Of a stretch of 64,000 nt of DNA, positions 27,863 to 34,860 are shown piece after piece. A program made the position numbers and the translations under genes. This DNA is from Kiritimatiellia bacterium (lineage in GTDB: Bacteria; Verrucomicrobiota; Kiritimatiellia; RFP12; UBA1067): the NCBI GenBank assembly GCA_050949565.1, contig JBMNFY010000017.1:672001-736000 (forward strand), in the 5' to 3' direction. Position 1 is the stretch's first letter. Each line of letters starts with the position of its first letter. The notes under the pieces are model-generated. The model had not been told where the DNA came from, ran no database searches, and was given only the letters and a program-made list of their open reading frames with translations.

Positions 27863-30535
27863 TCACTGCAGAGACGCCGTCAAACGTTTTACTAGTTCGT
27901 CCGGTGACAGAGAACTCGCTGCATAGCGCATTGTACCGGGGAGGGTGGCCGGATCAGTCAGCGCGTTGCCGAAGAGATCGGTCCAGCGGATGGCAGGATC
28001 TTGGACAAACGGCAACTTGGCGTCGCGTCCACCGCAGAGCACCGCGCAGCTTCCGCCGCGACCCGCGAAGAGATAGACGAAGCGGTTCGCGCCCAGATCG
28101 ACTTTGCGCACGAACGGCTTGCCTTCCAGCGAACGCGTGAGGTGGGAATAGGCAGCCAGTCCCGGATGCGGATAGCCGTCCGCTCCCAACAACACCATGA
28201 AGCTCGGCGCGGTGGCGAGGGATGAGTAACCGTGCGCCGTGTAAAGGAAGACCTTGGCTATCTTCTGCGCCAGCAGACTGACGGTGTAGCGGCAGTTCCT
28301 CTCAGCCAAGTTGACCGTATCCTCTTCCGGCTGCCAAGTGATGGTGTGTTTGTACAGGCCCGTCATGCGCTGCTCGCCTCTGCCGGAGCCTGTGCTACCA
28401 CCCTGTCCCTCGCTCATGTAGATCGGCTTGCCGCCCGCGTTCGGGAACTTGTCGAAGATTTCACCGACCGCATAGTGATAGGCCTGCGCCACGCTGTCAT
28501 CCGCGAGGCATGTCGCGTTCTTGGTGTAGAGGTGGAAGTCGATGGTATCGCACACCTCCATGCCTCCGGCGGCAAGCACACCCGCCGTCCACAACTGACC
28601 GCTCCCGCCGCCTGTGGAATTGAATCCGGCGACCTTGATGGTGGGGTCCACGGCCTTGACGGTCCGGTAGGCTCCGCGACAAAGCTCCGTGAAATCGCGC
28701 TCGGCGTCATCCTTCCCGAAGAACTTCGCGTCCTTTCCCGACTTCCACCATCCGCCCCAAGGCTCGTTCCAGACGAAATATTCGTCGATCACCCCTTTGT
28801 AGCGCGTGACGAACGTCTTCACATAGGCGTTGAACTCTTCATTATTTTTCGGGCGCATGAATTTTTCAAAGTACCCCATGTGCTTGCAGCCCAAGTCGTC
28901 GTAGTGCGAGGCCCAGGCCGGCGCAGTTCCCAACTGCGCGAAAATCTTGATCCCGTTTTTACGGTAACGCTGGAGGTCCGCGTCCATGAAGGTCCACTCA
29001 CCTTTTTTCTTCTCAAGATTCCACCAGCCGCAGTACTCGGTACCGGCGTCGTGCAGACGCGCCCAGTTGATACCGCACGCTTTCATCATGCGGATGGTCG
29101 ACTCCAAAGCGATAAAGTGACAACCGAAGGGTGAGTCCGGTGCGTCCTGCCCCCAGAAAACCGGACGTTCCAACCGCGTCATCACGATCTCGTTGTAGGG
29201 CGAGATGCGCGTGCCGTCGCGTTCCACCCACGCCTCGATCCGGAATTGACCGAGGGGCCGGGCGGGAAAAACGTCGAACCGCAACGTGCCGTCAAACTGC
29301 TTCGATCCTGCCGGCACGCGCAGATCTGCCAGCGGTACGCTTGTTCCGTAAAGGTCTGTCACGCAACTTTTCAGTACCGCGCCGCCTGCCTCGCCTGTCA
29401 CGCAGAAACGCACTTCGGCGCGCTCGTCTGCGAACTGAATACGCGTCTCGGCAATCTCGGAGGTTCCCGGAGCGAGCGCCACCTCGCAGGCGCGGTCCTT
29501 CAGGTCGGCGGCCGCCGAATCAGCGAACGCACGCAAGGCGTCCAAGCGGAAGGTTCCGCTCCCGGTGAAACGCAGACAGAAACAGAGTGCCTCGCCGGGC
29601 AGCACGAAAGCCAGCTTGGCCGTCTGCCAACCGTTTGAAGGCGTCAGCGTCTTGCCGCCCATGGCACGACCGTCACGCATCAGTTCCACGCGACACGCAT
29701 TGTCGGCTTGGTATGCGAACGTGATCGTGTGGGGCTTGTCCGGCTGATTGGTTTGGAAGGGCTCGGAGTACAGCGCGAACCCCTCGCCGGATGTGACGAC
29801 AAGCGAAGGGACGCCCCCTTCACCGGGATGCGCGGTGTCGGCTCCGTAGGTGGCGGTACGGCTGTCGCGGTCGATGTTCCAACCACAGGGCAGCCCCAAC
29901 GGGAAGCGGCTGTTGCGGAAGAAGTTCTTCACCGAGGCGTCCGGACGCGGCACCGTGGCAGCAAGCTCCTCTTTGCTGAGACGCGCCAGTTCCACCGAGG
30001 CAATGTCCGTAATGCCGCCGCCCAAGTAGAAAAAGATCGCCACACGTGATTCGCTGCGCTCCCGTGTCTGGATGACGAAGCGCCGTTCCTTCCATCCGTC
30101 GGCAGGCAGGAACTCCGCCGTGCCGAAACTCCGATAGGGCGCGCCCACCTGACGCAGACCGAACTGAAGGGGGGCGGCGTGCGGGCGGGCCGTCACAACC
30201 AGCTCGAACACGCCCGGCAGCGCGATCTCGCCGCCACTGATCGAGAACTGCACAGCCGAATCGATCTTTTCCGTGTGGAACCGCAAAAATGTGCGCCCGT
30301 CTTCCGTGAGCCGTTCCGTACGCGCCACAGAGGCGTTCCACGCGGCGAAGTTCTCGCTCACCCTCGGTGGCAGCGTGCCTTGAAAGCGGCCGATCTTTTC
30401 GTACGAGCAGGCTCTTCCTTCCTGTCCAAAATCTACGCGGAACACCGTTTCTCTGGCTTCCGCCAACTGCATCCATCCCGCGCAGAAAGCCGCGCCGATC
30501 AGTATTGTGAGCCACCGTTTTGAGTGAGTCGTCAT
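27863..30535 (-). CDS. Secreted clan-A glycoside hydrolase (GH39-like) with N-terminal CBM-like domains
   Basis: MTTHSKRW signal peptide; DSPFGCH, GINWARLHD, LGTAPAWA, YFVWNEPW, IDFHLY, PIYMSEG. Confidence 0.75.
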   Translation of the reverse strand: MTTHSKRWLTILIGAAFCAGWMQLAEARETVFRVDFGQEGRACSYEKIGRFQGTLPPRVSENFAAWNASVARTERLTEDGRTFLRFHTEKIDSAVQFSISGGEIALPGVFELVVTARPHAAPLQFGLRQVGAPYRSFGTAEFLPADGWKERRFVIQTRERSESRVAIFFYLGGGITDIASVELARLSKEELAATVPRPDASVKNFFRNSRFPLGLPCGWNIDRDSRTATYGADTAHPGEGGVPSLVVTSGEGFALYSEPFQTNQPDKPHTITFAYQADNACRVELMRDGRAMGGKTLTPSNGWQTAKLAFVLPGEALCFCLRFTGSGTFRLDALRAFADSAAADLKDRACEVALAPGTSEIAETRIQFADERAEVRFCVTGEAGGAVLKSCVTDLYGTSVPLADLRVPAGSKQFDGTLRFDVFPARPLGQFRIEAWVERDGTRISPYNEIVMTRLERPVFWGQDAPDSPFGCHFIALESTIRMMKACGINWARLHDAGTEYCGWWNLEKKKGEWTFMDADLQRYRKNGIKIFAQLGTAPAWASHYDDLGCKHMGYFEKFMRPKNNEEFNAYVKTFVTRYKGVIDEYFVWNEPWGGWWKSGKDAKFFGKDDAERDFTELCRGAYRTVKAVDPTIKVAGFNSTGGGSGQLWTAGVLAAGGMEVCDTIDFHLYTKNATCLADDSVAQAYHYAVGEIFDKFPNAGGKPIYMSEGQGGSTGSGRGEQRMTGLYKHTITWQPEEDTVNLAERNCRYTVSLLAQKIAKVFLYTAHGYSSLATAPSFMVLLGADGYPHPGLAAYSHLTRSLEGKPFVRKVDLGANRFVYLFAGRGGSCAVLCGGRDAKLPFVQDPAIRWTDLFGNALTDPATLPGTMRYAASSLSPDELVKRLTASLQ

Positions 30536-30817
30536 CGTTTCTCCCTGAGTTCTGTTTACGCCGCCATCCCGCGCCCTTGCGCCTTTTTGCATACCTCAGA
30601 ACTGTAACCCCGAAATCACTTTGGAACAAGCGCTTTCTGCGGCAGCGCGGTAATCGGTTAGTGACAGGGGTGTGGTGCTCGGTTTTTTTATCACACGAAG
30701 GCACAAAGGACACGAAGGTTTTTTTGGGGGGGGCATTGCTCGGGTTTATTTAACAACGGAATACACTGAACACACGGAAAGGCACAGCTCTGCTGTTTCA
30801 CGCGAAGACGCGAAGAT

Positions 30818-30967
30818 TGGAGGGCGAGTGTCCCCACGAGCCGCCTGGACGCGGCAATGGAGGGCGAGTGTCCCCACGAGCCGCCTGGACGCGGCAATGG
30901 AGGGCGAGTGTCCCCACGAGCCGCCTGGACGCGGCAATGGAGGGCGAGTGTCCCCACGAGCCGCCTT
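30818..30967 (+). repeat. 40-bp tandem repeat, 3 full copies plus 1 partial
   Basis: TGGAGGGCGAGTGTCCCCACGAGCCGCCTGGACGCGGCAA at 30818, 30858 and 30898; the fourth copy runs into the 143-bp dispersed repeat. Confidence 0.95.
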
Positions 30968-31486
30968 CCGCTGTGCGGAAGGATGGTTTCAGGGTTTCAT
31001 TGCGGAGCACCGGGAGGGGCAAGCGTCTGCTTGCCCGCGGACGAGCAGACGCTCGTCCCTCCCCGGCGGCGGTCACGCCGCCACACGGGCAAGACACACA
31101 CCTCTGCACCTCCGTGTTAAAAAAACCGATCCTCCAAAACCCTTTGCGTTCTGTGCGTTCTTTGCGGCTATTACCGTAGCCATGCTCCAAAAATCTGCGG
31201 CATCTGCGAAATCTGCGGATCAAAAAAACCGAGCCTTGCCAGAAACCAAAGAGCGTTGAAGATTCAACTGCTCTTTTTAGGCTAACCGATTACGCGAGGG
31301 TTGGCGGAGCGCCGCTTGCCTCCAATCTGTTCGATAGCTTTGCGGAGCATCGCGAGTATCAATTTTGAGAATTTTTAGGGTTGACTTTTCCCCCCCCCGC
31401 ACAATGCGTGCCAACCATAGGGACCGGTGGGTTGCCGGTTAATCCTACGTGATGGTAATGAACAGAACCCAACTGAAAGGCTATTT

Positions 31487-32518
31487 ATGAACAGAAACAC
31501 TGTATCCTGTTCCGCGTTCCTCTCCCGCCTGGGGCGCCTCTGTGCGCTCGCCGTGGCGGGGCTGTTCGCGGCAACAGCCACCGCCGACCCGTACCTCACC
31601 TTCTCGAGCGCGCAGTCGTTCACGATCACGCCGCAGGAAGCGTTGTGGAACGGGACGCTCGAATACTCCACCGACGCGACGAGCTGGGCGGTCTTCGACA
31701 CCGCCGGCGCGACCGCGGCGGACGACGGCTCCGGCACGTACAGACTGTATCTCCGGGGGACGGGCAACACCAGCATTTCAGCAGCCACCGTGTATGCGCT
31801 CGGCTGGACGTTGACCGCCGCCGGGACGGTCGCCTGCGAGGGCAACATCGAGACCCTGCTCGACTATGCGAAGGTGATCAACGGCGAGCATCCGGTGATG
31901 TACGGCTACTGCTTCGCCAACCTGTTCCAGGACTGGACGGCGCTCACGGAAGCGCCCGCCCTGCCCGCCACGACGCTGGCCGATTACTGCTACTCCGGCA
32001 TGTTCCAGGGCTGCACGGGGCTGACGCAACCGCCCGCCCTGCCCGCCACGGCGCTGGCCGATTACTGCTACCAGAACATGTTCCAAGGCTGCACGGGCAT
32101 CAAGCTGAGCACCCAGGGCCCCGGCGCGGAGTGGGGCATCCCCGCCGCCGCGACGGCCCAAACGGGCTGGAACGACCTCATGCTCGACGACACGGGCGGC
32201 ACCTTCACCGGCAATCCGGAGATCGGCGTCATCTACTACTGCACGTCGGCCCCCGGCCCCGATCCCGACCCTGACCCCGAGGCGCCAGTCATCACCGCGA
32301 TCACCGTCGACACCGGCGCCTCGACGCTCGAAATCACGATCGACAACGCCATAACCGGCGCGTGGTACACGCTCCTTGTGGCGGACGAGCTTGGCGATCC
32401 TTGGGCGGTCACCCCGGCCGTCCAGGCGACAGCGGACGGCATCCTCGTCTTCCAGAACGTGCCCGCGACACTGCCGCACCGCTTCTACAAGGTGAGGGCC
32501 AGCGCGACCCAGCCGTAA
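31487..32518 (+). CDS. Secreted surface protein with BspA/LRR-like 26-aa repeats, PD linker and C-terminal beta-domain
   Basis: Signal peptide ending ATATA; PALPAT(T/A)LADYCY..MFQGCTG twice (78-bp DNA period, 31954/32032) plus a degenerate copy; PGPDPDPDPE; ends RFYKVRA. Confidence 0.75.
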   Translation: MNRNTVSCSAFLSRLGRLCALAVAGLFAATATADPYLTFSSAQSFTITPQEALWNGTLEYSTDATSWAVFDTAGATAADDGSGTYRLYLRGTGNTSISAATVYALGWTLTAAGTVACEGNIETLLDYAKVINGEHPVMYGYCFANLFQDWTALTEAPALPATTLADYCYSGMFQGCTGLTQPPALPATALADYCYQNMFQGCTGIKLSTQGPGAEWGIPAAATAQTGWNDLMLDDTGGTFTGNPEIGVIYYCTSAPGPDPDPDPEAPVITAITVDTGASTLEITIDNAITGAWYTLLVADELGDPWAVTPAVQATADGILVFQNVPATLPHRFYKVRASATQP

Positions 32519-32753
32519 CCGCAAGCGATTACAACGAAAGACAAACAACGAAAGGCAAATAGCGAACAAAGGATGACGAATGACGCGGGGGACGAGCGGA
32601 CGCTCGCCCCCGCGCATTTTTGAACATCGAACGCAGAAGGTTGAGAAACGCTCAACGTCCAACTCTCAACTTTCAGCGGGCGAGGACGCCCGCGACCGAC
32701 TGCGCGCACACAAAACACGCTCTCGACTCGTATACCCTTCTGTCACTAGCCGA

Positions 32754-34754
32754 TTACGGAACAAGCGCTTTCTGCGGGAGCGCAAAGTCGCCGTCCATTG
32801 TGACTGGTAACTGGAAGACATCGCCCTTCTGATTGCAGAAGTAGAGGCGTGACGCGGACGGTTTGCGTCCGTGTCCATCCGCCCAATAGCCGTAGAAATC
32901 GGGGTGGGCATTTACCGGACGGCGCACGTAGGTGTGGTTCATCTCGCTGTTGGCCGTCATCTGTCTGACCTTTCGCCATGTGGCTCCCGCGTCCTCGGTC
33001 AACCACATCGCGATCTCTCCGCCGGGATTGTACGGCTGCGGTCCCAACTCGGTCGGACCGATGATGCGCCATGTAGTGTCGCTCTCGATATACACCGGAC
33101 CGGTATCGTAATTGTTGCCCGAGACGATGCCGGTAAAGCGTTCCTGCCACTCCGTGCCGGTCCAGCGCACGGTGCGCCATTCACGGGGACCGTTGGCCGG
33201 GCCGGACTGGTATCCCTTGCTCAGTACGAACAGGATGATCGGATGTCCCTTGGAATCGAACTGCACGTCCTTGATGTAGCAGTTGCGGTTCTTGCTTTCG
33301 TACTCCAGTACCAGAGCAGGATTGTCTTTGCTGACAAGCGGCGTCTCAAGCACCTGCCCGTCGGCCGTCTTCCAGGTCGCGCCGAAATCATCGCTTTCCA
33401 TGTAGTACACGTTCGTGCGCCAGTTAAGCCCTTTGCCTTTAGGATGCTGGTTGAAGGCGATGCCGGTTTTCTTGTCCTTCCACTGCCAACTGATCTGATA
33501 GTGTCCCTCTTCAAAGTAAGCGGTCTGCTTGCGCTCGCTCCATTCGGTACCTTCCGGATTGCTGGTCATATAGTAGTTGCCGCGTCCCCTCACATACCAT
33601 GTATGGACAAAGAGAAAGCCCTTGCCGGGGTAGTAGAACGGTTCGGGATAGGAGAAGTTGCCGCTCCACATGAGTTGGAACGCCTCGATGTCGTACGGCT
33701 TGACGCTGCGCGAAATATAGGAGGGACGCCCGCGGCCGTGGCTGCTGGAGAAAATCCAGATGTAGCCCTTGTCATCCAGATTGATCACCGGGTTGTCATG
33801 CGCATCGTCGGTTTTTTTGTCGAGCAGACAGACGGGCCTGGCCACACGTCCCGTCTTATGGTCATAGTACGAGATCATGTGTAGGAGCGTGCGGTTGCCT
33901 TCATCGGTGCCGCCGTAACAGAAGAAGGTCTTGTTGACCGCGGGCGCATACCAGGCCATCGGGATATGCTTGGCGCAATAGGTGCCGAGGCCGCCGCTGT
34001 ACTTGTAGACGTACTCGTCCCCCGAGGGTTGATTGAAGTACCAGATGCCACGGAAACCATCTAGCTTGCGATTAAGGAGAACGGTCAGTGTCGGCTGGAA
34101 CTTCACGAGGTCAGCCCCGCCTTTCACCCGGTTTGCGATTGTCGTGTCAGTCGAATGGGTCTGCCAGTGCGCAATCAGCTCGCGCGACTGATCTGGCCAC
34201 GCCTCTTCGCTGGCGAGACACCGCGCCTCGGTCGCGTCGAGTGCGCGGTTCCAGATGCGGATGTCGGTCATGTTACCTTTGAGTATGCGTTCCTCTTGAC
34301 CGTTGATCACACCGACCGTCAGCGGATGCGCGAACGCCGTCCGTTTCAGCGGGATCGCCTGCTGCCCCTCCAGCACGCCGTCGCGATAGATCTTCGCCGT
34401 CTTGCCGTCATAGGTTCCCAGGTAGTGGGTCCAAACGTTCGGTTGCGGCGGCTTCGCTGTGGCGTATCCGTAACGGCCCGGTTCGCCCTCGACCAACATC
34501 CGCACCGCGCCCTTGTACAGGTAAAACGAAAAGTCCTGATTCGGCTTCCCCAATGTGAGGAACATCTGCGGACGCACAGCGTCCGTAACCCTGACCCACG
34601 CGGCGACCGAGAACCCGTCCACCTTCAGGACAGTCTGGATGTTGCTCACGCTGAAACCGGTTTGCCCGTCAAACGGATACCCCGCCTGTTTCGGCACGGC
34701 CCATACTGAGGCCGCCGCCAACACGACCACCGCTACCAACATGATTCCCCTCAT
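32754..34754 (-). CDS. Secreted LamG-domain + BNR-4 repeat family protein
   Basis: GGAGG before ATG 34754. LamG signature FSVAAWV...WTHYLGTYDG..KIYRDG...DIRIWNRAL; KYSGGLGTY, DDAHDNP, SYPEP, SDDFGATW, TEDAGATW Asp-boxes. Confidence 0.85.
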   Translation of the reverse strand: MRGIMLVAVVVLAAASVWAVPKQAGYPFDGQTGFSVSNIQTVLKVDGFSVAAWVRVTDAVRPQMFLTLGKPNQDFSFYLYKGAVRMLVEGEPGRYGYATAKPPQPNVWTHYLGTYDGKTAKIYRDGVLEGQQAIPLKRTAFAHPLTVGVINGQEERILKGNMTDIRIWNRALDATEARCLASEEAWPDQSRELIAHWQTHSTDTTIANRVKGGADLVKFQPTLTVLLNRKLDGFRGIWYFNQPSGDEYVYKYSGGLGTYCAKHIPMAWYAPAVNKTFFCYGGTDEGNRTLLHMISYYDHKTGRVARPVCLLDKKTDDAHDNPVINLDDKGYIWIFSSSHGRGRPSYISRSVKPYDIEAFQLMWSGNFSYPEPFYYPGKGFLFVHTWYVRGRGNYYMTSNPEGTEWSERKQTAYFEEGHYQISWQWKDKKTGIAFNQHPKGKGLNWRTNVYYMESDDFGATWKTADGQVLETPLVSKDNPALVLEYESKNRNCYIKDVQFDSKGHPIILFVLSKGYQSGPANGPREWRTVRWTGTEWQERFTGIVSGNNYDTGPVYIESDTTWRIIGPTELGPQPYNPGGEIAMWLTEDAGATWRKVRQMTANSEMNHTYVRRPVNAHPDFYGYWADGHGRKPSASRLYFCNQKGDVFQLPVTMDGDFALPQKALVP

Positions 34755-34860
34755 ATAGTCCTCCCGTTGCATTGTTTGCATTAAACACAGAAAGCTTTGG
34801 GAGACGCAACCCTTTTTTGGAACGAGCGCTTTCAGAGGCGGTTATGCTACACTCTCTCCC

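Follow-up and report, generated by a model that had tools for sequence, protein, structure and literature searches.

Insertion sequences (IS) of the IS66 family typically have ends that begin with GTAA and generate target duplications of 8–9 bp, and casposons, which carry a Cas1 integrase and a polymerase, generate duplications of 14–15 bp. MIC231 of Bacillus cereus, a mobile insertion cassette (MIC), derives from IS231, a member of the IS4 family. MICs and MITEs (miniature inverted-repeat transposable elements) are described as IS-related objects that can be activated by a cognate transposase (PMC3129680). ISDge4, an experimentally active member of the ISBst12 group, is reported to have terminal inverted repeats (TIRs) of GTGACT.../GTAACT..., a single transposase of 449 amino acids and an 8-bp repeat (PMC12898284). 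Longer duplications are also on record: direct repeats of 8–514 bp for IS1549 and IS1634, for which the passages concerned offer no mechanistic model (PMC2266710), target duplications of 16–28 bp for a subgroup of IS1202 (PMC10132070), and duplications of 111 and 250 bp for HERV-K insertions (PMC5488345). Here we describe a 2.1-kb unit without a transposase in a Kiritimatiellia genome, in a 64,000-nucleotide stretch of contig JBMNFY010000017.1 (positions 672,001–736,000; hereafter the window), where it lies at the 3′ end of a BNR_4 gene, whose product is sugar-enzyme-like, between two copies of a 27-bp repeat. We conclude that it is an IS66-derived passenger cassette, a familiar kind of element with one oddity, a flanking repeat of 27 bp rather than 9 bp.

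In its layout the unit is like a MIC or composite MITE: it has IS-type TIRs, no transposase, a passenger gene unrelated to transposition and a flanking direct repeat, and is presumed to be mobilised in trans. It differs from MIC231 in having IS66-type rather than IS231/IS4-family ends, in a flanking repeat three times the family length, and in being known from one locus. The family of elements that share its termini has in common with ISDge4 and the ISBst12 group the GTAA-starting ends, the single DDE_Tnp_IS66 open reading frame (ORF) of three larger elements described below (L156, L157 and L160), and a short fixed duplication. Unlike ISDge4, the family duplicates 9 bp rather than 8 bp, and the unit itself carries no transposase, the cognate gene having been found in none of the seven genomes of the genus. 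A short fixed duplication (8–9 bp) is thus a feature of the family (9 bp), but not of the insertion studied here (27 bp). IS1549 and IS1634 likewise have a flanking duplication far above a helical turn; they differ in transposase family and ends, and their long, variable repeats are a trait of the element, whereas here we see one event in a family that otherwise keeps to 9 bp. The IS1202 subgroup shares the range of duplication lengths but belongs to a family with a TnsB-like transposase, whose ISAjo2-type members have the ends TGT/ACA (PMC10132070); the ends here, GTAA...TTAC, are unrelated to these. No TnsB-like gene is present among the seven ORFs inside the unit; the genome as a whole was not searched for one.

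A 2,108-bp insertion at the end of a BNR_4 gene

Reading of the sequence confirmed every feature listed by the original prediction, which had been made from the letters of the window alone. The direct repeat GGAACAAGCGCTTTCTGCGG[C/G]AGCGC is found at 30623–30648 and 32758–32783, with 25 of 26 bases identical. The g at 30649, the third position of a Phe codon (TTC, as in four other species of the genus), is the 27th duplicated base; because it belongs to the repeat, the repeat is 27 bp long with 25 of 27 bases identical, and we refer to positions along repeat and target as t1–t27. The inverted repeats lie at 30650–30667 and 32740–32757 and match at 17 of 18 positions; their pattern occurs twice in the window, as compared with 0.03 occurrences expected from shuffles. 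No third copy of the 26-mer exists in the 4.66-Mb source genome (G000; 92% complete) at ≤5 mismatches. The BNR_4 gene now ends CCG TAA, with the TAA (32754–32756) inside the right inverted repeat, so that the terminus does supply the stop, as had been proposed. Also as proposed, an orphan copy of the gene end lies 2.1 kb away: it reads (TT)C GCG CTG CCG CAG AAA GCG CTT GTT CCA AAG TGA, with ALPQKALVPK* encoded at 30616–30648. An additional inverted-repeat half-site, CTAACCGATTAC, is present at 31282–31293.

If the unit is inserted DNA, relatives were expected to include an empty site with one repeat and a gene ending in ALVPK*. Our DNA search covered 41 genomes (the source genome and 40 relatives), and such a site is present in two members of the same genus (G002 and G004; flanks 97–99% identical), where the two flanks overlap by exactly the 26-mer. 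The empty site reads ...aaatcacttt GGAACAAGCGCTTTCTGCGGGAGCGC aaagtcgcc..., with a single repeat copy and a gene that ends ALVPK*. A scan of metagenome contigs for the 26-mer yielded five contigs (seven loci): two empty (L164 and L170), two filled (L166 and L168) and one with a third allele (L165). In empty alleles, ~90 bp separate the BNR_4 gene from the gene that follows it. Given that the empty sites have one repeat copy, the 2,108-bp stretch from 30650 to 32757 is an insertion.

Both junctions are reproduced letter for letter in L166 and L168, which differ from the window in the copy number of a 40-bp tandem repeat (two more or one fewer), in how long a poly-C tract is, at two substituted positions and by one deleted base, and in nothing further. 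At least half of the words of the stretch were found in 16 public runs from 13 studies of sludge, digester, landfill and bioreactor metagenomes. Run contigs bridge the left junction in all four runs examined and the right junction in two of them. We conclude that the filled structure is real and widespread, and is no assembly artefact. A joint skipping 30649–32757, as expected of an empty site or a circle, was not listed in the contigs of these four runs, although contigs drop rare variants, so that nothing follows from this about absence.

The insertion separates the BNR_4 gene from its original follower and shortens the BNR_4 protein by its last lysine alone. The allele is tolerated, and is now widespread, because the host gene loses only this lysine and takes its stop from the terminus. 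Consistent with this, the terminus GTAATCGGTTAGTGA holds TAA, TAG and TGA, which provide stops in two of three frames, and insertion in the last codons of a gene therefore truncates little. Hence, tolerance of an insertion at a gene end needs no special targeting.

The terminus family and its IS66-type enzyme

The 18-mer terminus has 106 sites in the source genome at ≤3 mismatches, and 122 sites are found with the 16-nt core plus GG. There are 63 sites for the 18-mer in G002 and 123 in G004; a reversed control pattern has none. Across the order, the motif is present in 32 of 151 sampled genomes, some with 50–155 sites, and the 80 matching loci in a species collection have record titles of Kiritimatiellia, Lentisphaerae and ‘Verrucomicrobia’ metagenome-assembled genomes. 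When the copies are oriented, the sequence outside the motif is unique and the sequence inside consists of a few recurring end modules; typical members are 233–344 bp long, with one ‘A-type’ and one ‘B-type’ end.

We sought insertion polymorphism at 50 loci. Four elements are present in G002 or G004 and empty in the source genome; all four are bounded exactly by GTAATCGG...CCGATTAC and have a 9-bp duplication. We also compared the flanking bases of 64 non-redundant terminus pairs. The nine bases on either side match at 9/9 positions in 15 pairs, at 8/9 in 6 and at 7/9 in 1, and in the remaining 42 the match is at chance level; shuffled pairing reaches 8/9 in 0.03% of cases. Over 27 flanking bases, the studied locus matches at 25/27 and the next best pair at 12/27, and the studied locus is the only pair >700 bp apart with any flanking repeat. 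Members of 233–344 bp have the properties of MITEs, being small and non-coding, with TIRs, a duplication, many copies and polymorphism. The 2.1-kb unit is too long and is protein-coding; it is a derivative and not itself a MITE. We conclude that the family consists of IS66-derived MITEs that are active within the genus and patchily distributed through the order. The genome-wide search suggested by the original prediction thus did recover a paired and mobile family, but one flanked by 9-bp duplications, with no other duplication of ~27 bp. The suggested preference for gene ends is unsupported; the 17 targets that could be reconstructed have no consensus.

Candidates for autonomous elements were chosen from pattern matches across the order as terminus pairs ~2 kb apart. 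There were two such pairs, L156 (2,011 bp) and L157 (1,999 bp), which have GTAATCGG(T/C)TAGCGACAGGGG at both ends and contain one long ORF each, with a match to DDE_Tnp_IS66 (PF03050; E 5.8e-36 and 1.9e-33, respectively); the L156 protein scores 212 bits against the NCBIfam model transpos_IS66 (NF033517), for which the cut-off is 180. A third element of 2,032 bp (L160), in a genome of the same family but another genus (G010), has termini GTAATCGGTTGGTGACAG, a perfect 9-bp duplication, GTTTAGGTT, and a transposase copy that is 74% identical and has one in-frame TGA. All three elements come from genomes that share the order but not the genus of the source genome; one of these genomes also belongs to its family. 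Given the shared termini, the IS66 ORF and the 9-bp duplication, we consider the family to be MITEs derived from a single-ORF, ISBst12-like member of IS66. By the same sequence features, the 2.1-kb unit is a transposase-less, passenger-carrying derivative of an ISBst12-like IS66 insertion sequence, that is, a MIC-like element or composite MITE. The proposal of a non-autonomous element mobilised in trans is borne out to the extent that the family moves without a transposase of its own; the matching enzyme was found solely in other genera. The closest gene in the source genome is a split relic with 31–36% identity (C17:1224478-1226431).

Other insertion sequences of the source genome were considered as partners and rejected because their termini differ: a 1,450-bp DDE_Tnp_1 element (~14 copies), a 1,652-bp DDE_Tnp_1/DUF772 element (~11 copies), a 1,457-bp element lacking any Pfam match (~9 copies), elements of the rve type and others that are IS30-like, and a single-copy IS4-like gene (C7:154466-156022). 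Transposases of IS1 (PF03400) and IS256 (PF00872) have no match in this genome. A 1,426-bp terminus pair (C1:253786-255211; L062), considered as an autonomous element, is really a family member with a nested 950-bp IS5-type element. The nested element is bounded by inverted repeats of its own, AGG(G/A)CTTATCCG..., and its transposase is encoded in two frames separated by an A-run; relatives are found at C11:119871-120823 and near C6:300-1235, and the C1 and C6 copies are equidistant from the terminus and 82% identical. The 1,457-bp element (C8:141837-143293 and eight further copies) encodes a 425-aa ORF without a Pfam match at E ≤ 0.001 and has GTGACCAC in inverted orientation in its flanks; it is possibly an unclassified insertion sequence.

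Larger terminus pairs were also considered as cargo units, namely those around an OEP gene, around APH-like and TIM-barrel genes and around a TrkA-like gene. None has a flanking repeat, and we therefore took them to be independent ends. The outer flanks of many termini in the source genome (e.g. C1:143240, C4:85704, C17:373744 and C17:1646833) contain stacked partial copies of the terminus, comprising its first 6–12 bases (gtaatc, gtaatcggttgg) just outside the element, and 2 of the 17 reconstructed targets resemble the terminus (GAAATCGGG and GTGATCGGR). Members of the family may thus insert next to older ends. At G000:C15:25800-31900 (L066), a 623-bp unit made up of element sequence and 199 bp of flank is repeated four times.

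Origin of the 27-bp repeat

On the coding strand, the left copy of the repeat reads ..C GCG CTG CCG CAG... and the right copy TTT GCG CTC CCG CAG.... The copies differ only at t21 and t27, both of which are third codon positions at which the change is synonymous. The orphan left copy has TTC and CTG, like G005 and G006 (G001 and G003 also have TTC), whereas the right copy, which is functional, shares TTT and CTC with every empty allele. Had a simple duplication been followed by drift, changes would be expected in the orphan and not in the functional copy; the pattern therefore looks like two alleles joined. Moreover, the 9 bases left of the left terminus are t19–t27, as a canonical insertion would leave them.

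The third allele, V (L165; a metagenome contig of 2,016 bp, positions 295–383 and 1807–1932), has the same left junction, t1–t27 followed by the terminus, and continues with GCAATCGG and a B-type module; both the passenger gene and a right terminus are missing. On its right side, an A-type module breaks off at ...GACTGCGC, where a TGCGC microhomology links it to another copy of the flank (44 bp of spacer plus the gene end), resulting in a 70-bp direct repeat of 88.6% identity in which the right copy is of the empty type. Flank duplication has therefore arisen at this site at least once without a transposase-made right junction. Allele V looks like the product of homology-facilitated illegitimate recombination, reportedly described by de Vries and Wackernagel in 2002 for natural transformation: judging from the junctions, it would combine one homologous anchor and one microhomology joint with a gain of extra DNA. 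At a site in C15 of the source genome and the orthologous site of G002 (L026), different family members have outer ends 10 bp apart, indicating that independent nearby hits in different lineages do occur. The identity profile of filled and empty alleles shows a diverged spacer beside the left repeat (83–84% in the bin 30500–30599, the most diverged stretch, which includes a 9-bp indel), with no clear edge of a recombination tract.

On these sequences we favour a canonical 9-bp insertion plus recombination between alleles over one aberrant 27-bp staggered integration, and put the probability of this reading at roughly 0.5. An IS66-type DDE transposase supplied in trans would bind the two outer termini and join them to staggered nicks 9 bp apart, with repair giving a 9-bp duplication. 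A family member would have inserted in this way at t19–t27, in an allele with the genus-typical TTC and CTG, creating the left junction. This allele would then have recombined with an empty-type allele, gaining a second complete gene end. Most likely, the empty-type allele bore its own family member 18 bp upstream (t1–t9), and the crossover occurred within homologous element DNA. Such a route would yield precise terminus junctions, a repeat of 9 + 9 + 9 = 27 bp, and a left copy of the older type with a right copy of the empty type, with no further event. That this is the sole long repeat among 64 pairs supports the two-step account.

Several observations weigh against the two-step account or the wider picture in which it stands. 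Neither parental allele, with a 9-bp insertion at t19–t27 or at t1–t9, was found in the two genomes and five metagenome contigs that have the site. The precise right terminus abutting t1 is equally predicted by a single 27-bp staggered integration, and it takes a coincidence, invoked with hindsight, for two hits to fall independently within 27 bp and then be joined by a crossover. Although their left junction is the same, the window allele and V diverge from the very first base after the terminus (C-type versus B-type module), a difference that needs a further event under every model. An origin of the empty alleles from a filled one, via deletion between the repeats, is conceivable in principle. 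A cognate transposase at E ≤ 1e-10 is found in none of the seven genomes of the genus, which are 56–92% complete. Lastly, the terminus–gene–terminus unit occurs at one locus only in the source genome and the 40 relatives searched, and hence we infer its movement as one piece.

One-step aberrant transposition is the alternative that we take most seriously, although we consider it less probable than the two-step account. The ends of the unit would attack 27 bp apart, through uncoordinated or alternative-register strand transfer, gap repair would copy 27 bp, and homologous exchange with an empty-type allele would later replace the right copy as far as the homology reaches. Once 30649 is recognised as t27, the order of parts (repeat–terminus–element–terminus–repeat) is precisely what a target duplication gives, both junctions are precise, and 27 is 3 × 9; as the only pair >700 bp with a flanking repeat is the one studied here, substrate length might matter. 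Long irregular duplications are, in addition, on record for IS1549/IS1634 (PMC2266710) and HERV-K (PMC5488345). However, 9 bp is the length in all 21 other pairs whose duplication is clear (8 or 9 of 9), as it is in L160, and allele V demonstrates a route to duplication at this site that does not involve a transposase. It is also the orphan, not the functional copy, that holds the genus-typical synonymous states, so that a one-step origin needs an extra recombination reaching within 21 nt of heterology. That an IS66-type transposase has a second integration register, in which the ends of a long, cargo-bearing substrate attack 27 bp (3 × 9) apart, is possible but doubtful. We regard it as improbable that the gene end was rebuilt by homology-facilitated illegitimate recombination after a canonical insertion at t19–t27 had cut off the last seven codons, with empty-allele DNA anchored by homology in the gene and joined illegitimately at a GG microhomology behind the right terminus. 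Allele V, with its TGCGC microhomology, lost right terminus, 70-bp duplication and empty-type right copy, looks like such a product, and GG both follows the terminus in the predicted parent and begins t1. Nevertheless, chance must place the joint precisely at the final base of the terminus, 2 bp is very little microhomology, and the rebuilt end is still without the last lysine.

The long repeat had originally been likened to those of casposons, of IS1634/IS1549-type elements and of integrases that target gene ends, and a 26–27-bp repeat at a gene 3′ end that leaves the gene intact does resemble an att duplication; one IS1202 subgroup is also reported to make duplications in this range (PMC10132070). 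Even so, we give very little credence to a dedicated long-duplication or site-specific system, be it a casposon-like Cas1, a transposase of the IS1634/IS1549 or IS1202 type, or an integrase (tyrosine or serine) whose att site lies in the 3′ end of the gene. The termini belong to an IS66-family element with 9-bp duplications and are unlike the TGT...ACA ends given for ISAjo2-type members of the IS1202 family in PMC10132070. The seven internal ORFs have no match to any Pfam family, Cas1 included, at E ≤ 0.01, and hence no transposase was seen inside the unit; neither the unit nor the three neighbouring genes scanned in addition to the BNR_4 gene and its follower contain a recombinase, Cas1 or any other Pfam family, and the repeat abuts transposon termini. 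The 26-mer is nowhere else in the source genome, and other family members lie at unrelated targets. The parallels fail because the long duplication is no property of the element or its enzyme. A separate question, compatible with any account of the repeat, is the history of the cargo, which might have been captured in place after a small family member had inserted, in which case the 2.1 kb would at no time have moved together. Allele V shares the left junction and has an element there that lacks the gene, and the unit is found at one locus; the left-arm backbone of the unit resembles a 409-bp family member (G000:C4:23804-24212), which the left and right arms together match, with ~1.6 kb extra in the middle of the unit. 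We nonetheless consider capture in place unlikely. It has no evident mechanism, and the passenger segment starts exactly at the tip of the inner terminus fragment (31293), as if a member had once inserted beside the gene elsewhere. The modules shared by V and the window are multi-copy, and one pair is only 89% alike; V and the window therefore need not be the same insertion. Taken together, a non-autonomous, trans-mobilised element and a real empty site remain from the original prediction, and a long-duplication mechanism aimed at gene ends does not.

Anatomy of the unit and its cargo

BLAST against the source genome splits the insert into four parts: a left arm (30650–31293) with up to 231 copies, an upstream region (31300–31560) that is nearly unique, a gene (31487–32518) with 6–31 weaker matches, and a right arm (32640–32757) with up to 44 copies. 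The original description of one surface-protein gene amid repeat mosaics, with no transposase, is accurate. The left arm includes the 40-bp tandem repeat (30818–30966) and a palindromic module (31012–31063). BLAST matches this 52-bp module (GGGAGGGGCAAGCG...CGCTCGTCCCTCCC) up to 231 times in the source genome, and a copy is located in G001 (L006) in the spacer between orthologues of the same two genes.

The region 31324–32644 shares 82–84% identity with the locus of a paralogue, G000:C8:67355-69142, where family termini are absent. The match runs from the upstream region through the hairpin and T run, indicating that the passenger is a whole transcription unit. The hairpin (32585–32621) is terminator-like by eye; a consensus terminator scan did not list it. 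A poly-C tract upstream of the passenger gene (31390–31398) is longer by one or two bases among alleles, and this homopolymer could, from its sequence and position, act as a phase-variable switch. In the passenger protein, LADYCY..MFQGCTG repeats and a PD-rich linker (PDPDPDP) accompany an N-terminus that resembles a signal peptide. The protein matches nothing in Pfam or NCBIfam, and is one of a set of paralogues with five further loci at 36–62% identity.

The downstream gene of the original two-gene arrangement likely starts at an ATG at 30535 behind GGGAG, although its longest ORF reaches 30592. The start MTTHSKR is common to G001 and G006. The protein has a weak match to Glyco_hydro_39 and none in NCBIfam. 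In the spacer of the filled allele, half of a GGCGGCG/CGCCGCC hairpin has been lost by a 9-bp deletion relative to L002, L003, L164 and L170. Coordinates are collected in Table 1.

Table 1 Features of the filled locus, in window coordinates
Feature	Position	Strand	Basis
Downstream gene of the original two-gene arrangement	27863..30535	-	ORF list
Intergenic spacer of the original locus	30536..30615	n/a	Alignment of filled and empty alleles
Orphan copy of the BNR_4 gene end, ALPQKALVPK*	30616..30649	-	Sequence; identical in L166 and L168
Left direct repeat, 27 bp (t1–t27), C at t21, G at t27 (as in the other species of the genus)	30623..30649	n/a	Repeat search and comparison
Left terminal inverted repeat GTAATCGGTTAGTGACAGGGG, IS66-type, begins GTAA	30650..30670	+	Pattern and genome copies
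Left arm, mosaic of small interspersed repeats	30650..31293	n/a	BLAST; segments with up to 231 genomic copies
Inner 12-nt terminus fragment CTAACCGATTAC, tip toward the passenger segment	31282..31293	-	Only 2 such ends in G000
Passenger segment, whole transcription unit	31294..32644	+	BLAST and paralogue comparison
Passenger gene, 343 aa	31487..32518	+	ORF; only sizeable gene inside the unit
G+C-rich hairpin then T run behind the passenger gene	32585..32621	+	Also at the C8 paralogue
Right arm, ‘A-type’ end module with terminal inverted repeat GTAATCGGCTAGTGACAG at 32740–32757, no inner terminus	32640..32757	-	
BNR_4/Laminin_G_3 gene, ends ...ALPQKALVP*	32754..34781	-	ORF list and domain search
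Right direct repeat, 27 bp (t1–t27), G at t21, A at t27 (the states of all empty alleles)	32758..32784		

Were the 27-bp repeat a one-step product after all, it would give new insight into target capture by IS66-family transposases. A second integration register, if real, would add to the mechanism of a little-studied family something for which it has no description; the duplication would carry a spare copy of the last codons of a gene, so that insertions at gene ends survive, and it would offer a tractable entry into the unexplained long duplications of IS1549/IS1634. Irrespective of how the repeat arose, the commonest terminus motif of this Kiritimatiellia genome can now be named and assigned a likely enzyme. 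A derivative without a transposase but with a complete secreted-protein gene on board represents one way to copy paralogous surface-protein genes around the genome, and the three alleles at the site (empty, 27-bp duplication and 70-bp duplication) are a small natural experiment on how insertions at gene ends are tolerated or repaired in a recombining, uncultured population.

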